This document shows positions 10,299-21,782 of a stretch of 21,782 nucleotides of DNA, in pieces (positions within the stretch are counted from its first letter, which is position 1; each line of letters opens with the position of its first letter). Under the pieces are notes generated by a model, which was not told the DNA's origin, did no database searches, and saw only the letters and a list, made by a program, of their open reading frames with translations. The position numbers were made by a program, and so were the translations under genes. The stretch comes from Thermodesulfobacteriota bacterium (lineage in GTDB: Bacteria > Desulfobacterota > Desulfobacteria > Desulfobacterales > SURF-7). Location: assembly GCA_049320885.1 (NCBI GenBank), contig JBMORA010000023.1, positions 1-21,782 of the forward strand. Direction: 5' to 3'.

Positions 10299-11555
10299 TT
10301 AAAAAGAATAAATATCGCTGTGCTGGTTTCCCAACAACAAGCCTGCTCCGGACGCTCGAATGGGCTGCTTTTCAGCATCGGATACCTGAACGATTTCAAG
10401 GGAAGTAACATCCTGAACATGATAGAAACTTCTTTCATATTCCGATAGACCCACGATAATATCAATTAGTGTCGCCTTGAGAGGTAAATCACATACGAAC
10501 TCCGTATAATACCTTCCGGGGGCAAGATCAGCTGGCTTGGACCAGTAGGTTACCAGAGGGATTGATTCACGGGTCACAAGACCTATGCCGGCAATAACAT
10601 GCTTGAGATTTTGATGGATTTCAAATTCCAGGCGTATCAGCCATTTTTCACCGATTTTGAATTTGTTTCGCGGTTGGCCGGATTCATCACTAATCAGTAG
10701 GCGAAGACCTTGCCCTTTGTCGGCCCCAAAACCATTTATTAACGGTAATTCCACGACAGATTTGCTGGAACTGCCCATTGCATCTATATAGCGGTCAATC
10801 ACCGTATTTGTTCTATCCAGCATTGTGAAAACGCCTTTATCCAGCATCATGGAAAAGGGGCAAAGTTTTCTAACCGCGGCCATATTATGGCTTACAAAAA
10901 GCACGGTTCTGCCGGCGTTCATGACGTCGCTCATTTTTCCCAGGCATTTCTTTTGAAATTCGATGTCTCCAACTGCCAGCACTTCATCCACCACCAGGAT
11001 TTCCGGTTCCAGGTGGGCTGCCACGGCAAAGGCAAGGCGGACAAACATTCCGCTGGAATACCGCTTGACCGGTGTGTCGATGAACTTTTCCACTCCTGAG
11101 AAATCTATGATTTCATCCAGTTTTAGTTGGATTTCAGCGCGACGCATGCCGAGGATGGCACCGTTCAGGAAGATGTTTTCCCGGCCCGTCAGTTCCGGGT
11201 GGAAACCAGTTCCCACTTCCAGCAGGCTGGCAATTCTGCCGCGGACTTTGATTTCTCCTGCGGTAGGGGCTGTGACGCGGGAGAGGATTTTCAGCAGGGT
11301 GCTTTTCCCGGCCCCGTTGCGTCCGATAATACCCAATGCCTGGCCCTGTGGTACCTGGAAACTGACATCCCGTAATGCCCAGATATAATCACCCGATTGA
11401 TTGCCGTGGTCGGTTGCGCCGATTTTCAGGAGAGGGTCGGGCTTGCCGCGGAGCTTGGCCCACCAGCGGTGTACATCATCGGTAAGGGTTTTGCCGCTGA
11501 TGGTGCCGAGGCGGTAGGTTTTGGAAATATTTTCAACCGAAATGGCGATGGTCAT
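10299..11555 (-). CDS. wzt: Polysaccharide ABC transporter ATP-binding protein with C-terminal Wzt_C-like domain
   Basis: Walker A GRNGAGKST, signature YSSGM, Walker B VVDE, H-loop SH; ~170-aa C-terminal extension; ATG at 11555 overlaps the wzm stop (ATGA). Confidence 0.92.
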   Translation of the reverse strand: MTIAISVENISKTYRLGTISGKTLTDDVHRWWAKLRGKPDPLLKIGATDHGNQSGDYIWALRDVSFQVPQGQALGIIGRNGAGKSTLLKILSRVTAPTAGEIKVRGRIASLLEVGTGFHPELTGRENIFLNGAILGMRRAEIQLKLDEIIDFSGVEKFIDTPVKRYSSGMFVRLAFAVAAHLEPEILVVDEVLAVGDIEFQKKCLGKMSDVMNAGRTVLFVSHNMAAVRKLCPFSMMLDKGVFTMLDRTNTVIDRYIDAMGSSSKSVVELPLINGFGADKGQGLRLLISDESGQPRNKFKIGEKWLIRLEFEIHQNLKHVIAGIGLVTRESIPLVTYWSKPADLAPGRYYTEFVCDLPLKATLIDIIVGLSEYERSFYHVQDVTSLEIVQVSDAEKQPIRASGAGLLLGNQHSDIYSF

Positions 11556-12409
11556 ACGGTATCCATGAATGTGGATTCCACGTGATTGAACAGAAGGATT
11601 CCGATCAGCAGCAGCACCGCCGTAAAAACGGCACTGTACAACAATGCCCAAGGATTCAAGGTGCCGACTCCGAGAAAGGCGAAGCGGAATGTCTCGATTA
11701 CTGCCGCCAATGGATTGGCCAGCAGGAAGGGCTTGAAAGCGTCGGGCACGGAGGAAAGCGGATAGATCACGGGAGTGGCATACATCAGCAATTGGACGCC
11801 GAAAGTCACCAGGAACCGCAAGTCACGGTATCTGGTGGTGAGGGCCGAGACAATGATGCCGAACCCGAGTCCCATGCCGGCCATCAGCAGCAACAGAACC
11901 GGCAGAAACAGCATCCAGAGGTTCGGCCGGATACCGGAGCCGGAAAGATAAAAATACAGAAGAAAGATCATGAACAAAGAAAATTGAATCACAAAGGTGA
12001 CCAGATTGGACAGCAGGATGGAAAGCGGCACGGCCAGGCGGGGGAAGTATGCCTTGCCGAACAGATTCTCATTGCTGATGAAGGTGGTGGAAGTCTTGTT
12101 CAGGGACTCGGCAAAATAGGCCCACAGCACGGTACCGGACATGTAGAAAAGAAATCCCGGCACCCCGTCCGTGGGCAGTTTGGCAATGAGGCCGAAAACG
12201 ATGGTAAAGGTGACGGTTGTGAGAATGGGCTGAATCAGGAACCACAGGGGGCCCAGAATGGTTTGTTTGTAAATGGCGACGAAATCCCGCCAGAAAAAAA
12301 GAATGACCAGTTCCCGGGCCCGCCAGAGCTCGCCGAGGTTCAGTTCGAACCAGCCGCGGCGGGGGCGGATGATCATGGTCCAGTTGTCTTGGTTGTCGGG
12401 GGAAGGCAT
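11552..12409 (-). CDS. wzm: Polysaccharide ABC transporter permease
   Basis: YKQTILGPLWFLIQP, YRDL, YATPVIYP and NPLAAVIETFR motifs; multiple hydrophobic helices; coupled to wzt. Confidence 0.92.
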   Translation of the reverse strand: MPSPDNQDNWTMIIRPRRGWFELNLGELWRARELVILFFWRDFVAIYKQTILGPLWFLIQPILTTVTFTIVFGLIAKLPTDGVPGFLFYMSGTVLWAYFAESLNKTSTTFISNENLFGKAYFPRLAVPLSILLSNLVTFVIQFSLFMIFLLYFYLSGSGIRPNLWMLFLPVLLLLMAGMGLGFGIIVSALTTRYRDLRFLVTFGVQLLMYATPVIYPLSSVPDAFKPFLLANPLAAVIETFRFAFLGVGTLNPWALLYSAVFTAVLLLIGILLFNHVESTFMDTV

Positions 12410-12420
12410 GGTATAAAAAC

Positions 12421-12482
12421 CAGGAGTCAGAAGTCAGAAGACAGAAGACAGAATAAAAAAACAGGAGACAGAAGACAGAATA
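12421..12482. repeat. Heptamer array (8 units, CAGRAGA-like) downstream of four-helix-bundle copy A
   Basis: + strand: CAGGAGT CAGAAGT CAGAAGA CAGAAGA CAGAATA aaaaaa CAGGAGA CAGAAGA CAGAATA. Confidence 0.95.
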
Positions 12483-12495
12483 TCGGAAATGGAAA

Positions 12496-12858
12496 TCATT
12501 TGTCGGAAATAATGGCTTTGGAATAGGGATCTAAGAGTTTACTGACTTCTTCGAGTGATTGTTTCAAGTCGGATATATCCCCATATTCGAGATCGTTTGC
12601 AAGAATCAGATAATATCGGGATTCTTCGAGGGAGCCCTCAGCGATATTCAGGAAACGGATTTTGTCGGCCTTGCCGCGTTTTCGGAATCCTTCGGCAATA
12701 TTGGCGGCAATGGAGACGGCTGCGCGGCGGAACTGGGCGGTTAGACCAAAATTTTCCGATGCCGGGAATGTCTGGGAAAACCGGTAAACGCTCAATACGA
12801 ACTGATGGGCCCTTTGCCACACCAGTAGGTCTTCAAATCGCTTCGCCGGCGCTCTCAA
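12496..12858 (-). CDS. Four helix bundle protein (TIGR02436 / 23S rRNA IVP family), intact copy A
   Basis: FEDLLVWQRAH, FPASENFGLTAQFRRAAVSIAANIAEG and FLNIAEGSLEE signatures; TTG start at 12858 with GGAG 9 nt upstream gives 120 aa; the longer ORF just reads through the heptamer array. Confidence 0.88.
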   Translation of the reverse strand: MRAPAKRFEDLLVWQRAHQFVLSVYRFSQTFPASENFGLTAQFRRAAVSIAANIAEGFRKRGKADKIRFLNIAEGSLEESRYYLILANDLEYGDISDLKQSLEEVSKLLDPYSKAIISDK

Positions 12859-12874
12859 ATCCCCCGGCTCCCTC

Positions 12875-12923
12875 CATTCTGTCTTCTGTCTTCTGACTTC
12901 TGTCTTCTGATTTCTGTCTCCTG
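12875..12923. repeat. Heptamer array (7 units) upstream of copy A, inverted relative to 12421-12482
   Basis: + strand: CATTCTG TCTTCTG TCTTCTG ACTTCTG TCTTCTG ATTTCTG TCTCCTG. Confidence 0.95.
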
Positions 12924-12943
12924 TATTCCTCATCAATTTAATT

Positions 12944-13366
12944 TCATTCTGTTTCCCGACAGACCGCCGCCAATGTATTCGTCATGACATCCAGGTACTC
13001 ATCAAGCCTTTGATAAATCTGGTTGAACTCTTCCTTGTTGTAAAGGTGGCTCATGCGGTTACGGTCATTGATCATTTCCATCAGGGTTTCATAATTTTTT
13101 TCATCCGTATATTTTGCCAGGTAGAGCTGTTTGATCGCTGTTTTGGGGGATACCGTTTCGATGCCATGGAATTCGTAGAGAAATGATTTCATCGTTTTCC
13201 AAAACAGCTCTATGCTGATTTCAAATTTTTGGATTTGACCATTTTTCAGAATATCCTGCTCAATTTCCTCAAATCCATTGACATTGATCGACATGGCTCT
13301 GGCAAAGGATTCCATCGCCTGTTTCAGCTGGATCAGCTTGCGGTCAAACCCTGCACGTTGTTCCAT
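12944..13366 (-). CDS. HEPN-domain protein (HI0074-like nucleotidyltransferase substrate-binding family), putative RNase toxin
   Basis: IQKFEISIELFWK and RNRMSHLY (RX4HXY) motifs; overlaps the upstream MNT gene. Confidence 0.85.
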   Translation of the reverse strand: MEQRAGFDRKLIQLKQAMESFARAMSINVNGFEEIEQDILKNGQIQKFEISIELFWKTMKSFLYEFHGIETVSPKTAIKQLYLAKYTDEKNYETLMEMINDRNRMSHLYNKEEFNQIYQRLDEYLDVMTNTLAAVCRETE

Positions 13367-13668
13367 ATAATAATATTCTCCATGGCTTTTTTCTTAAAGG
13401 AAGGATCCACACGGTTGAAATCGATGATATCCACCTTCCAGGGGACAATGGACTCGTCAACGGCATTTATGATGCGGTGATAAATGCTTCTGGACAAAGG
13501 TTCTTTTGCCAGCAGGCCGATGTCGACGTCGGAGGTCGACGAGTGCTGGCCGGTTGCCCTCGAGCCGAATACAAACACCATCGTGTTCTCTCTTGCTACC
13601 CGGGAGAGAACAATTCCCCTTAATATGTTCATGTATTTGTCAGTGTATGGTTTGTTCGAGGTCGGCAT
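13333..13668 (-). CDS. Minimal nucleotidyltransferase (MNT) antitoxin, HI0073-like
   Basis: FGSRATGQHSSTSDVD = GS-X10-DXD motif; third acidic residue in VDIID. Confidence 0.87.
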   Translation of the reverse strand: MPTSNKPYTDKYMNILRGIVLSRVARENTMVFVFGSRATGQHSSTSDVDIGLLAKEPLSRSIYHRIINAVDESIVPWKVDIIDFNRVDPSFKKKAMENIIIWNNVQGLTAS

Positions 13669-13679
13669 GGTTTAGGAAA

Positions 13680-13707
13680 CAGGAGTCAGAAGACAGAAGA
13701 CAGAATA
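13680..13707. repeat. Heptamer array (4 units) downstream of four-helix-bundle copy B
   Basis: + strand: CAGGAGT CAGAAGA CAGAAGA CAGAATA. Confidence 0.92.
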
Positions 13708-13720
13708 TCGGAAACGGAAA

Positions 13721-14083
13721 TCATTTGTCGGAAATAATGGCTTTGGAATAGGAAGCCAATAGGTTACTGACTTCTTCTATTGATTGTTTCAAGTCGGATA
13801 TATCCCCATATCCAAGGTCATTGGAAAGAATGAGATCGTATCGGGATTCTTCCAGTGAACCTTGGGCGATGTTTAAAAAACGGATTTTGTCGGCCTTGCC
13901 ACGTTTTCGGAAACCTTCGGCAATATTGGCGGCAATGGAGACGGCGGCACGGCGGCACTGGACGGTTAGACCAAATTTTTCCGATGCCGGGAATGCCTGG
14001 GAAAACCGATAAACGTCCAGGACAATCTGGTGAGCCTTTTGCCACACCAGTAACTCTTCAAATCATTTTGCCGGCGCTCTCAA
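13721..14083 (-). pseudogene. Four helix bundle protein copy B with nonsense codon at position 7
   Basis: Colinear with copy A (both 363 bp, TTG AGA GCG CCG start); codon 7 is TGA (14063-14065) where copy A has CGA; 17 of 120 residues differ by manual alignment; a 108-aa product from GTG 14047 remains possible. Confidence 0.78.
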
Positions 14084-14099
14084 TTTCCCCGATTCCCTC

Positions 14100-14155
14100 C
14101 ATTCTGTCTCCTGTCTCCTGTCTCCTGACGCCTGTCTTCTGATTTCTGCCTCCTG
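14100..14155. repeat. Heptamer array (8 units) upstream of copy B, inverted relative to 13680-13707
   Basis: + strand: CATTCTG TCTCCTG TCTCCTG TCTCCTG ACGCCTG TCTTCTG ATTTCTG CCTCCTG. Confidence 0.93.
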
Positions 14156-14162
14156 CCTCCTT

Positions 14163-16544
14163 TCACTTTTCAACCTCAAAGCCGTATTCCCCCCGGACCT
14201 GTTCCGAGATCACGGCCTCGCCGTCGCCGGTGAAGAAAAAGGAGAAGCTGCAGCCGCCGTGGTAGGTGTTGGACCCGATTTTTTCATCATGGGGAGCGAG
14301 AAAGCGATTGTCGCCGGCGCCATCCAGGAATACGGCCAAACCGTTATGGGCCGCGGCCCCCTGGCAGAAGAACAGATCCTGGGCGTCATAGACATCGTCG
14401 CCGGCCCGGTCATTCAGGACCGCGACGCCCCTGTCCCAGGCGGCTGCCTGGAGCGCGCCCACGAGACCGGAATAGACGTCGTTTCCGCCTTCATCCAGCA
14501 GCATGCCGGCCGCCGAATGGGCGGCCCAGCCCTGGGCGTAACGGGAGCCGTGATAGGTGTCGGGGTCGCTTCCGGAATTGTTCAGCAGCCCCAGGCCCAG
14601 GGCATAACCGCCGCCCTGGGAAAAATCTCCGGCCTCGAATTCATCCGCGCCGGCGCCGTCCAGCAGCATGCCGATACCGCCCGGCGCAATGCCCCGCAGG
14701 CCGAAACCCACTCCCTGGGAAAGGCCCTGGAAGGCGCCGGGCGTCCGGTAGCAGCTGGGATATTTCCCCGTGGCGTAATAGCGGTCGTTTCCGGCCATGT
14801 CCAGCAGCAGGCCGGCGGCCATGGGTCCCCCGGCCCCCTGGGATTGAAAAAAGGATTCGTAGCAATCGTCGCCGGCCGCGTCCAGCAGCAGGCCCATGCC
14901 CCAACAAGCGGCGCCCTGGTTCATCTCCTGGCCGCGATAGACATCGTCGCCGCCGAGATCCAGGAGGATCCCGATTCCCATCATGGCCGTGCCCTGGGCG
15001 AAGCGGGCGCCTGTATAGCGGTCATCGCCGCCCAGATCCGCCAGGAGGCCCACGCCGAGCAAGCCTGTTCCCTGGGAGAAATCATCTGCGGAAGAATACC
15101 GGTCGTTCCCTTCCAGATCGACGATGAGGCCCACCGGCTGGTCCGGCGTGCCGCTGCCGATGGCGGCGGCGTAGAAATCGTCTCCGCCCGGGTCCAGGAC
15201 AACGGCGATGTCCGGCCGGGTATAGCGGTTCGGCCCGGGACCGCCGATCACGATCAGGCCTGCCGCGGACGGCTCGCTGTGGAGGATTGGACCGCTGATT
15301 CCCGGCAGCGCCGGGGCAATGGAAGGCGTTGCCCCGGTCATGCCTTCTTTCAGGGCGGCCAGCCATTCGGGATCGGTCAGCGCCGCCAGGATCCGTCCGG
15401 ATTCAAACAGGTACTGAAAGTCGATACGCCGGGCCAGGGAAATGAAGCGCAATTCGTCCGCGGACATCAGGCTCTCCCCGGGTTGTCCAGCGTCGCAGGA
15501 CCGGGAACCGCCGGCGACCGTTGTCCGTCGCGCATGGCGGGACAGAAATTGCCGGTCTGCTTCCGAAAGCTTGCCAAAAGCATGATTCCGGGCGTCGAGG
15601 GCCGCGGCGACAACGGACTGGATATACAGGACATGCCCGGCCAAATCCGCCGAAGCCGGAGGCAGGGGGATTTCACTCGGGGTGCTGTTTTCCGGTTGAA
15701 CAACAGGGATGTCCAGAAGCCGGGCGGTCTTTGCCAGCAGACCAGCCAGGGAATGCTCCCGGGCCAGGGTCTCGATTTCCCGGGACAACTCCAGGCCGAC
15801 GGCGTTCAATTTCGTGGGACGGCGGCGGATATATCCCAGGAGCGGCGGCATGGCGTCACCGGCGGGCAGTTCCGCCTGACGGAACAGGGCGAGAAAATTC
15901 CGGTATTCGGCGGTCAGGTTATGGTTGCGGATCAATGCCCGCATCAGTTTCCCTTCGGGATCCGGGGCGGTTGCATAAGGGTCCAGGTCCGGCCGCACTC
16001 GTTCTCCGGTATCACCGGCTGTTTCCCGGAGTTCACCGAGAACCACCGGAACGGTCAGGGACTCCAGGCGTTTTTCGATGGCGCCCGACAGTTCCTCCGC
16101 TTCCGGGTGCCGGGCCAGCCGCTCGGCCAGCTCGGTCATGTCCGCGATTTCGGTGGTCCGGCCGCCTGTTTCCAGGCGTATCCGGGTTACCGGCCGGAGA
16201 ATTTCCAGCCGGATGGTATCCCCGGCCTTTTTTTCGTTCCGGATGTAACCGGTGAACAAATGGGTGACGGAGACACCGGTTTCCGGCCGAAGGGAACGGC
16301 CGTCGACACCCGTGATCCGGTCACCTGGTTGAAGTCCGGCCTTCTCCGCTGCTGAGTCCGGAAAAACCCGGATGATCCGCAGTCCGCCTTCCTGCTGGCC
16401 CCCCGGGGCGTCAGCGCCAGGAAGCGGTCCGAAGGAAACCCCCAGGAAAGCCGGCCGCCGGTCTTCGGCGTTCAGGGCAGTGGTTCCCGGGCGGCAGGCA
16501 TACAGAACTAAAGGTAGCGCGATCATCACGGCTGTCCTGGTCAT
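14163..16544 (-). CDS. Putative lipoprotein with N-terminal PDZ domain and C-terminal Gly/Asp-rich repeats
   Basis: Signal peptide ending LVLYAC (lipobox-like); AFLGV...RVFPDSAAEKAGLQPGDRITGVDG is PDZ-like; ~12 repeats of G-x-G-h-h-h-D-x-x-G-[DN]-D-x-Y. Confidence 0.8.
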   Translation of the reverse strand: MTRTAVMIALPLVLYACRPGTTALNAEDRRPAFLGVSFGPLPGADAPGGQQEGGLRIIRVFPDSAAEKAGLQPGDRITGVDGRSLRPETGVSVTHLFTGYIRNEKKAGDTIRLEILRPVTRIRLETGGRTTEIADMTELAERLARHPEAEELSGAIEKRLESLTVPVVLGELRETAGDTGERVRPDLDPYATAPDPEGKLMRALIRNHNLTAEYRNFLALFRQAELPAGDAMPPLLGYIRRRPTKLNAVGLELSREIETLAREHSLAGLLAKTARLLDIPVVQPENSTPSEIPLPPASADLAGHVLYIQSVVAAALDARNHAFGKLSEADRQFLSRHARRTTVAGGSRSCDAGQPGESLMSADELRFISLARRIDFQYLFESGRILAALTDPEWLAALKEGMTGATPSIAPALPGISGPILHSEPSAAGLIVIGGPGPNRYTRPDIAVVLDPGGDDFYAAAIGSGTPDQPVGLIVDLEGNDRYSSADDFSQGTGLLGVGLLADLGGDDRYTGARFAQGTAMMGIGILLDLGGDDVYRGQEMNQGAACWGMGLLLDAAGDDCYESFFQSQGAGGPMAAGLLLDMAGNDRYYATGKYPSCYRTPGAFQGLSQGVGFGLRGIAPGGIGMLLDGAGADEFEAGDFSQGGGYALGLGLLNNSGSDPDTYHGSRYAQGWAAHSAAGMLLDEGGNDVYSGLVGALQAAAWDRGVAVLNDRAGDDVYDAQDLFFCQGAAAHNGLAVFLDGAGDNRFLAPHDEKIGSNTYHGGCSFSFFFTGDGEAVISEQVRGEYGFEVEK

Positions 16545-16853: not shown

Positions 16854-17285
16854 TTATCCGGAAAAATTTGTCTTTTCAATCCAACGCATTATTTCTTTAG
16901 TATAATTCCGAAAGTCATTCAGGTTTTTTGAGATGATGCTGTATACGACCTCCCAATTCAGGGATGCATATTGGTGGACGGCCATATTGCGGAAACCGAC
17001 TCCTTTTTGCATACGTTCCGCTGTGCCATCCGTTATTACACCCGCATCTCTCAAGCGCTCGAAGCATTCCGTCATGCTGCCGGGCGCCGGGAGATTCATC
17101 TCGGCTATCACATGAGCGGCTATATCGACAGACAGTTGCACGGCGCGTTCAAGATTCAGGATGATGATATCCTGGATATCGAAATCAGAAGATAACAGTT
17201 CCCTGCTTGCGGGCCTTTTGGCAGTGATTCTGTCGATGCAGCGTTTCAGCGATTCGATTTTGGCAAGTATGATCTGATCATCCAT
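16854..17285 (-). CDS. hepT: HepT-like HEPN RNase toxin (DUF86)
   Basis: LNLERAVQLSVDIAAH and GFRNMAVHQY (RX4HXY); overlaps the upstream MNT gene by 8 bp. Confidence 0.88.
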   Translation of the reverse strand: MDDQIILAKIESLKRCIDRITAKRPASRELLSSDFDIQDIIILNLERAVQLSVDIAAHVIAEMNLPAPGSMTECFERLRDAGVITDGTAERMQKGVGFRNMAVHQYASLNWEVVYSIISKNLNDFRNYTKEIMRWIEKTNFSG

Positions 17286-17679
17286 AAATGAAGTCCCTGA
17301 GGCGTTTTTTTCGGATCATGGTGGTGTAAGGCATCATATCCGTTTGGTCATAAAGCATTTTTTTCAGTAATCGCGCAAACGTGCTGGCGTCCTTTTTCAG
17401 TGCAATGCCGGTACAGATCGCCTGTTTGAGAATGAGGCCGGAAACGGCATTGAGATCGACCAGGTCAACATCAAAAGAAATCAGGCGGGAGGCTTCATGG
17501 ATCAAGTTGATTCTTTCTTGAAACGAAAGCGCTTGATCGGCAGCCACGGCGATATCGATGTCGCTTCCCGGAACGAGACGGTTTCGCGCCGCCGATCCGA
17601 ACAGGATGGCGCACCGGATATCCGGTCGGTTCTGGAAGTACCCCCGGAGAGGTCGGATGATATGGGTTTCTGTATTCAT
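17278..17679 (-). CDS. mntA: MntA-like adenylyltransferase antitoxin
   Basis: FGSAARNRLVPGSDID = GS-X10-DXD; VDLVDL; adjacent to the HEPN gene. Confidence 0.88.
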   Translation of the reverse strand: MNTETHIIRPLRGYFQNRPDIRCAILFGSAARNRLVPGSDIDIAVAADQALSFQERINLIHEASRLISFDVDLVDLNAVSGLILKQAICTGIALKKDASTFARLLKKMLYDQTDMMPYTTMIRKKRLRDFIYG

Positions 17680-17710
17680 GGTCGATACATCATGGGAATG
17701 TGGCGGATCA

Positions 17711-17989
17711 TCAGCGCTGGGGTATGTTTTTCAGCACCGGGTCCAGCTTCCGGCGGGCATGGTACAGTTCATACACCTGCTGGAGCTTCAGCCAGATATG
17801 GGGACTGGTGTCGAACCATTTGCCGAGCCGGAGAGCCGTGTCGGCCGTGATGGCTCTTTTCCCGGCTATGATCTGGGAAATCCGATTCGCCGGGACTTGA
17901 ATGGCTCTGGCGAGCTCCGCGGCGTTCATGCCGAGCTTATCCAGTTTGTCTGCCAATATTTCTCCGGGATGAGAGGGTGGATGTGCCAT
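17711..17989 (-). CDS. higA: HigA-family (VapI) HTH antitoxin/regulator
   Basis: HPGEIL, ELARAIQVPANRISQIIAGKRAITADTALRL and WLKLQ signatures; AAGGA upstream of the ATG. Confidence 0.9.
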   Translation of the reverse strand: MAHPPSHPGEILADKLDKLGMNAAELARAIQVPANRISQIIAGKRAITADTALRLGKWFDTSPHIWLKLQQVYELYHARRKLDPVLKNIPQR

Positions 17990-21150: not shown

Positions 21151-21696
21151 TTACGAGTTCGCCTTTTTTCGGGTGATCCCCAAGAGCAGGCATATTCCGG
21201 TGCCGAACAGCCACAGGGCGCTGGGAATCGGCACCGGGTTGGCGGCAGCGGGAGAGGACAGAGCTTCGATCATGAGCGAGACCCCGCCCACATTGTCCAG
21301 GAAATAGCTATCCGGTACATAAAAACGAACTTCGCTGTCCTGCTGCAAGGTGAAGCGCGTGCTCGTGGCGGTGGCCAATGCATTCAGGTCGGTGGCATAC
21401 ACCGTGGCATCGAGATACCCGATTTGGAATTCCTCGGATGACATCATATAGTTGATGCTCCAACCAAGGGTCGGAAGCAGCACCCATCCCCATGGATTCC
21501 AGGCATTGTATTTTCCACCCTCGGCGATTCCAATCGGTGTGACTTCATATTCGCCGGCGAGAAAAGACCCGATGACGGGACTGCCCATGCCGTTTGTTTT
21601 AGCGGTTATGTTGATGATGGCGGCGGAAGCCGAAGGGGCCGAGATTACCAATAAAAGAGCAATGCCCAAGATAGTTCGTGAGATGACCGGTTTCAT
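21151..21696 (-). CDS. PEP-CTERM-type (VPIP / VPLPA-like) exosortase-sorted surface protein
   Basis: Signal peptide ending ASA-A; C-terminus NPVPIPSALWLFGTGICLLLGITRKK = motif + TM helix + basic tail; AAGGAG 6 nt before ATG 21696. Confidence 0.85.
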   Translation of the reverse strand: MKPVISRTILGIALLLVISAPSASAAIINITAKTNGMGSPVIGSFLAGEYEVTPIGIAEGGKYNAWNPWGWVLLPTLGWSINYMMSSEEFQIGYLDATVYATDLNALATATSTRFTLQQDSEVRFYVPDSYFLDNVGGVSLMIEALSSPAAANPVPIPSALWLFGTGICLLLGITRKKANS

Positions 21697-21782
21697 AGGT
21701 TTCTCCTTCCAGAAATTCAATGAATTATGGTTGTGACGGAAGAATGTTTTGTGCGATGAGGCGGAATGCTTCCTGATGGGAC

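Follow-up and report, generated by a model that had tools for sequence, protein, structure and literature searches.

The most closely comparable elements described so far are intervening sequences of bacterial 23S rRNA. In Coxiella burnetii, the 23S S23p element has a 28-bp stem and, ahead of the ORF start, GACAGAT/GACAGAA heptamers, and RNase III cuts it at the first heptamer repeat (PMC4990558). PF05635-type genes are also known outside rRNA, for example at CRISPR loci (PMC3936711), and the homology between PF05635 and Avd has been noted (PMC10053308). In Avd, the pentamer holds an RNA stem-loop whose bases insert between protomers, and all five protomers take part (10.1101/2023.10.23.563531). 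Intergenic heptamers have been reported from Xanthomonas and Nostoc as degenerate arrays of mostly four units, often in convergent inverted pairs, and have been linked to G-quadruplexes (PMC4692102). Among mobile elements, IS66 members produce 8-bp target duplications, and mobile insertion cassettes and MITEs have been defined as classes (PMC3281130). We found no paper describing the combination of a PF05635 gene with inverted heptamer arms in our literature search, which left most subscription papers and supplements outside its reach.

The DNA analysed here (the window, 21,782 nucleotides) is contig C23 of a 5.6-Mb genome. Its minus strand carries, in order, a PDZ gene, cassette 2, MNT, HEPN, cassette 1, wzm and wzt (Table 1). 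An earlier sequence-only reading had described a four-helix-bundle gene bracketed by a perfect 27-bp inverted repeat, and this was confirmed: 12428-12454 and 12876-12902 are exact reverse complements of each other, not a single further base matches on either side, and the 27-mer is present at only those two positions in the 5.6 Mb searched, with an intact gene between them. Tandem Repeats Finder (TRF) placed period-7 arrays at 12428-12480 and 12877-12928. The enclosed ORF matched PF05635 (E 1.6e-35; 122 bits against a cut-off of 33.8) and TIGR02436 (E 3.2e-34; 117 bits against a cut-off of 24). Its start is likely the TTG at 12858, because the orthologue in the congener G002 has ATG and GGAGG there. 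The protein matched the pentameric PDB entry 2GSC by sequence (E 6e-18). Its alignment-free, single-sequence structure model was poor (pLDDT 62); a fold search with this low-confidence model ranked 2GSC first at only E 0.03 and returned zero matches at E<=0.001. The protein is mildly basic, with a net charge of +2, and a Pfam/TIGRFAM-type profile search of it detected no nuclease or transposase domain.

Table 1. Positions of the two cassettes and adjoining features in the window.
Feature	Positions	Strand	Description
Four-helix-bundle gene, copy 1	12496..12858	-	PF05635/TIGR02436, 120 codons, intact, likely TTG start
5' arm, copy 1	12875..12929	-	purine-rich CAG(A/G)A(G/A)(A/T) heptamers on the mRNA strand
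3' arm, copy 1	12421..12482	-	complementary heptamers in blocks 12462-12482 and 12421-12455, T run between
Left half of exact 27-bp inverted repeat	12428..12454	.	partner 12876-12902
wzm-type ABC-2 permease gene	11552..12409	-	downstream context, profile match
Cargo between cassettes	12944..13668	-	MntA-like nucleotidyltransferase 13333-13668; HI0074/HepT-like (HEPN) gene 12944-13366
Four-helix-bundle gene, copy 2	13721..14083	-	in-frame TGA at codon 7 (14063-14065)
5' arm, copy 2	14100..14161	-	immediately past PDZ-gene stop
3' arm, copy 2	13673..13707	-	ends just ahead of MNT start codon
PDZ-domain gene	14163..16544	-	upstream context, profile match

The 5' arm of copy 1 begins about 15 nt past the HEPN stop and is followed by GGAGG at 12870-12874, and its 3' arm, which is interrupted and carries an extra gene-proximal block at 12462-12482, ends 11 nt ahead of the wzm start codon, a gap in which no Shine-Dalgarno motif was visible. 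Translational bypass, in which the upstream Shine-Dalgarno would be joined to the downstream start over the stem, was considered and set aside because the spacings, about 11-15 nt by sequence, looked too long. The terminal inverted repeats of copy 1 form a long predicted stem around the sense S23p ORF. Folding of the minus-strand RNA 12400-12950, as the sequence-only reading had suggested, gave -183.5 kcal/mol (z = -5.0), and 0/100 shuffles were equally good. The predicted stem is shifted in register, because the 3' arm carries the extra proximal block: 93% of the 5'-arm bases pair with the 3' arm, and the 27-bp register itself has a probability of about 1e-4. No intrinsic terminator or convincing promoter exceeded shuffles at the cassette, and the cassette region had no Rfam match at E<=1.

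A second cassette lies at 13673-14161, beyond the stretch that the sequence-only reading had described. It is 1.2 kb from copy 1 and 88% identical to it over 300 nt; its region also folds more stably than shuffles (z = -4.7), and its gene is probably a pseudogene. When the region was searched against 60 relatives, the PDZ-to-wzm site was matched only in G002. There, the cargo enclosed by a gutted copy 2 and a copy 1 is another gene pair of nucleotidyltransferase type, and this copy 1 has a likewise interrupted 3' arm and a frameshift near the end of its gene. Since both copies are also present in G002, the two-copy layout is older than the split from G002, and the frameshift shows that the gene is dispensable at this site. 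The comparison indicates that the cargo has been swapped between the arms in one genome relative to the other, and that decay has set in at copy 2 and at both copies in G002. The two window copies resemble each other more closely than copy 1 resembles its orthologue in G002, which suggests conversion. A clean empty site, of the kind that the sequence-only reading proposed to look for, was not found at this locus: G002 is occupied, and in the congener G001 the arms are absent after the PDZ gene and the genes downstream are different. Elsewhere, G001 has a cassette with an internal in-frame deletion that retains both arms. No contig joint supporting excision of the cargo was found for the source organism, and the DNA-contig joints across the copy-1 gene had sides of <30 nt and probably derive from other repeat copies. 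The motif ACCATGCC, common to both downstream starts, was considered as a duplication breakpoint and set aside as weak evidence, because the MNT homologue in G034 likewise begins ATG CC. The window copy is an ordinary, old member of its family; what it adds is a pair of copies with swapped cargo.

Several other features of the window were recorded. The PDZ protein contains DxxGDDxY-type repeats of about 26 residues in a region without a Pfam match. Positions 16854-17989 hold a second MntA/HepT-type pair, with HepT above the cut-off, together with a HigA antitoxin; no toxin ORF of at least 80 aa is listed beside HigA, and HigA is about 90-95% identical in both congeners. The protein encoded at 21151-21720 has a C-terminal VPIPSALWLFGTG segment without a family match, which we take to resemble a PEP-CTERM/VPLPA-type sorting tail.

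The gene-plus-arm arrangement recurs across the protein family. This genome has six PF05635 genes. Inverted arms, built from four different words, bracket five of them; in the sixth, a fifth word forms a hairpin within an extended ORF. This sixth gene (contig C4, 15447-15850) has no 5' arm, its 225-aa open frame reads through the heptamer hairpin, and a similar gene occurs in G001 (L174). Out of 496 loci confirmed in genomes, we surveyed the best 80, which span many phyla at 62-77% identity; four were dropped for N or edges, leaving 76. With an inverted-repeat score of >=30 as the criterion and ORFs from the same loci as controls, inverted arms were found at 58/76 homologue loci, compared with 4/122 control ORFs and with 10/76 loci for the direct orientation. 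Among mixed subfamilies of one order, restricted to stronger full-length matches, 56/94 loci had inverted arms, and the periods in the mixed-subfamily loci were 7 (39 cases), 8 (12), 6 (6) and 9 (6). Shuffles and control ORFs ruled out a chance origin of the arms. The cassette is real and typical of its family, and the idea of the sequence-only reading that gene and arms form a self-contained unit is borne out by this recurrence.

The same survey did not sustain the tie to polysaccharide operons that had been drawn from the window. Both neighbours were co-directional with the homologue at 53/76 loci, and the downstream genes include pheT, mraY, pyrG, icd, hisA, lpxA, aspS, nuoM, thiolase and gmd. 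In the downstream scan (45 genes of 146 neighbours, about half without a match at E<=1e-40), only 3 matches among the 45 were to nucleotide-sugar enzymes. The neighbours are functionally unrelated, and a polysaccharide-specific role was rejected on account of this diversity. Ten close relatives (60-80% identity) are on plasmids, and those listed are all cyanobacterial; the copy-1 query found no relative on viral contigs. At L089:3350-3500, a homologous cassette appears, by eye, to end right before a tRNA-like gene.

We then compared repeat words with protein subfamilies. Arms cross-paired in only 1% of 136 pairs drawn from the same genome with <35% protein identity, but in 78% of 54 pairs drawn from different genomes with >=70% identity, so the repeat word tracks the protein subfamily and not the host. 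In array-rich genomes, the window heptamer was carried by 0/20 non-cognate genes, that is, genes of other subfamilies. Among 74 homologues, four-fold sites are saturated (0.29 against 0.25 expected) and the median protein identity is 68%; purifying selection acts on the protein. In de novo period-7 consensuses, AG.A was kept in 60/62 5' arms and 64/70 3' arms, a pattern that 10% of 7-mers would contain by chance. Complementarity alone would not fix a word, so something must read the sequence, and we infer that the enclosed protein is the simplest candidate reader. Since relatives in many phyla keep the same repeat, the protein likely recognises its own heptamer in a sequence-specific manner, which gives indirect backing to the suggestion of the sequence-only reading that the protein binds the heptamers. 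Within a locus, the order of units is complementary beyond shuffles (0/300) and beyond cross-locus pairing (102 against 47 +/- 16), a match that comes from selection on pairing or from templated repair. G-U exceeded A-C in one comparison (78 against 54, p 0.045) and not significantly in another (98 against 84), a weak excess for the RNA-level pairing of arms that would predict one.

Arrays are also widespread without the gene. In this genome, arrays of at least three units numbered 20, 42 and 17 for repeat families A, B and C (1, 0 and 0 in the shuffle), and were mostly intergenic with the outer end close to a stop or start codon. Paired arms made up 8/20, 11/42 and 12/17 of them, respectively, and solo arms accounted for 12/20 in family A and 31/42 in family B, the orientation counts of solo arrays being approximate because gene calls missed some genes. 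At 14 orthologous sites of families B and C, the array was kept at 9 in G001 and absent at 3, with another word present at 2; in G002 it was kept at 4 and absent or decayed at 10. A gene-less family-B hairpin of about 175 nt in this genome (contig C55, 31753-31930; L197:9762-9927) has a clean empty site in G002 (L222), located between stop codon and ribosome-binding site. The G001 junctions that match L197:14035 and L195:6734 hold another heptamer family, GAAC(G/T)CG, in the same orientation. In gene-less hairpins of G051 (L198, L199), the loop contains nested palindromes or other repeat families, and no convincing gene remnants were found in the gene-less hairpins of G051.

Presence of the cognate gene followed the arrays only in part. 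Across 250 genomes of the phylum, it was found in 12/48 with the array pattern and in 0/202 without it, in a comparison where kin genomes are not independent and the cassette's own arms add to the match. Among genomes with >=10 pattern matches, the cognate gene was present in 8/23 and absent from 15/23; G001 has 104 matches and only the internally deleted cassette. The family-B gene was found in 6/10 genomes with >=10 family-B matches, was absent from two genomes with >100, and was not found in G002. Arrays that lack their cognate gene indicate either that arrays outlive the gene or that draft assemblies miss it.

The sequence-only reading had also offered a small mobile cassette as one option. 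This part stands for sister elements and is not supported for current mobility of the window copy. In G040 and G001, GTAACTRYTCAG forms the ends of IS66 transposase elements. Similar ends, allowing 2 mismatches, were present on both sides at 7/80 homologue loci, 2 of the 7 with a 7/8 duplication, and in 3/97 order-level matches. Two of these three, full cassettes with repeats of other families, show duplications of 8/8 and 7/8. When metagenomes were scanned for the end joined to the window heptamer, 87 loci were returned, giving 53 distinct elements with the right end inside the fetched flank. Target duplications of 7-8/8 accompanied 41/53 of these elements (control, 2/212). Pieces of the cognate gene occurred in 44/53, and a near-full gene in none. 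The elements form 13 sequence groups, with duplications in 8/13, and the largest group holds 38/53 members; kin genomes are not independent. In these elements, the IS66 end runs directly into the first CAG unit; in other subfamilies, the end leads into different words. Three gene-less family-A arrays in this genome (C58:45684, C63:162619 and C56:53176) begin with an IS66-like end, the right end at C56 being decayed. The window copies match the IS66-type ends at 7-8 of 12 bases, which is background level, and no 6-8 nt direct repeat that could represent an 8-bp target duplication lies across either copy. The cassette has no transposase, and the single IS66 transposase of the genome has a GTAAGCG-type end, not GTAACT. 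Given the transposon ends on its sisters, the cassette family was probably spread by transposases that it borrowed, and the window copy is likely one of its old members, now stranded. An IS66 origin of this particular copy would be one route among several, since its own ends are lost and few homologues have both.

We favour, with slightly better than even confidence, the following explanation. The cassette would be an old, stranded copy of a hairpin-armed passenger that spread by borrowing IS66-type transposases; its protein would recognise its own repeat, and the predicted pairing of the arms would loop the gene out of the mRNA. The cassette would be transcribed by read-through, and the four-helix-bundle gene would be translated mainly before the 3' arm is made, because the region where the ribosome binds borders the 5' arm or falls inside it. 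A pentamer like that of Avd would then bind the repeat RNA, one unit per protomer crevice, and this binding would control both the protein's own expression and the fate of the stem, which RNase III may cut as it does in the Coxiella rRNA element. Self-control, looping and cleavage together could allow insertions at gene junctions to be tolerated, and copies that decay would leave scattered gene-less hairpins and solo arrays.

Other explanations have to be weighed against this one. An upkeep system resembling REPIN/RAYT, is in our view unlikely. Here the protein would work on DNA together with a polymerase or recombinase of the host, so that its cognate arrays are created, rewritten or spread throughout the genome, and the transposon ends would be a secondary capture. 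It would account for the five heptamer families of this genome, each matching one resident four-helix-bundle subfamily, for the better retention of family B/C arrays in G001, which has both genes, than in G002, for the two G001 junctions with another word, for the clean empty site of the gene-less hairpin, and for family A and B arrays being mostly solo and mostly without IS66 ends. However, the protein has no nuclease or transposase domain, the sole reverse transcriptase found is on another contig, array-rich genomes often have no gene, and the retention figures amount to one three-genome contrast and not a statistical test. More doubtful still is that the cassette is a host-selected intervening element of the mRNA, with the stem serving as a site of RNase III processing or of translation control, by which expression of the polysaccharide export genes downstream would be tuned. 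The long predicted stem, the RNase III gene of this genome, cleavage within the Coxiella heptamers (PMC4990558), the frequent co-direction of both neighbours, the retention of the site in two congeners and a downstream start so close to the arm are all compatible with it, but neighbours across the family are functionally unrelated, sister elements bear transposon signatures, and decay has begun in copy 2 and in both G002 copies.

We give a little less credence again to passive co-inheritance, where arms and gene merely travel together on a mobile cassette, the repeats being slippage-expanded ends to which the protein is blind. Co-travel alone predicts that the word tracks the protein subfamily. 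In addition, arrays outlive the gene, and the first CAG unit directly follows the IS66 end. Yet the word is conserved although the synonymous sites of the enclosed gene are saturated, pairing needs complementarity and not a fixed word or period, and in other subfamilies an identical IS66 end is followed by different words. Least probable to us is a local platform for cargo exchange, with the two direct copies acting as recombination sites that swap small toxin-antitoxin-type genes. The cargo does differ from that in G002 with boundaries at the arms, and the likeness of the window copies suggests conversion; against this, the comparison is a single one, an integrase is absent, no contig joint supports excision, and the idea accounts for the site but not for the family.

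Beyond the window, we tentatively propose, at somewhat less than even confidence, that PF05635 proteins are ring-shaped, sequence-specific readers of tandem repeats of 6-9 bases, with one word per subfamily; that gene-plus-arm cassettes are the source and keepers of unexplained heptamer arrays; and that the ORF-bearing intervening sequences of rRNA are nothing more than cassettes of this type inserted into 23S rRNA. If true, this would link three old puzzles: a very common protein family that has solved structures but no assigned function, the heptamer repeats over-represented in many bacterial genomes, and the origin of ORF-bearing rRNA intervening sequences. Several subfamilies coexist in one genome, each with a different predicted word, which opens specificity to simple swaps, and a modular code of ring and repeat could serve as an RNA-targeting tool.

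Compared with known systems, the cassette shares features with several. REPIN-RAYT systems (PMC3116915) likewise combine multiple repeat groups in one genome, each located next to its cognate gene, with inverted doublets that form extragenic hairpins, and here too the cognate gene is flanked by its own repeat group and several groups share a genome. In contrast to RAYTs, the protein is not a Y1 tyrosine transposase, the units are tandem 6-9-mers and not palindromic REPs, and solo arms outnumber doublets in families A and B. Avd is a remote homologue with a pentameric barrel that binds an RNA stem-loop, and the copy-1 protein matched the Avd models NF033474 (E 4e-6) and PF22296 (E 5e-4); its score of 27 bits is far under the cut-off of 80, and, unlike a diversity-generating retroelement, the contig has no reverse transcriptase gene. 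The sole one found in the genome (contig C15, position 21059; about 310 aa, YADD motif) is not beside any four-helix-bundle gene. The Xanthomonas/Nostoc heptamers are, as here, intergenic 7-mers in inverted pairs, for which the accessible text of PMC4692102 names no protein partner. Like mobile insertion cassettes and MITEs, sister elements have no transposase and show IS-type ends, 8-bp duplications and internally deleted derivatives, whereas the window copies have neither ends nor duplication, and their passenger gene has its own matched internal arms under constraint. The rRNA intervening sequences of Coxiella, and of Leptospira as cited in PMC4990558, have the same protein family in a stem loop, sense to the transcript, at about 430-510 nt. 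The Coxiella heptamers, which the accessible text of that paper notes only as direct repeats on the 5' side without generalising them, are close to the window word CAGAAGA, and with the RNase III cut at the first repeat they make this link closer than the sequence-only reading had claimed. The differences are that RNase III cleavage is a demonstrated step in Coxiella and a possible one here, and that the window cassette lies between protein-coding genes (HEPN and wzm). The cassette is not an rRNA intervening sequence, because it is in the wrong place, nor strictly an IS66 MITE, because its ends are lost; it resembles the former in construction and is related to the latter.
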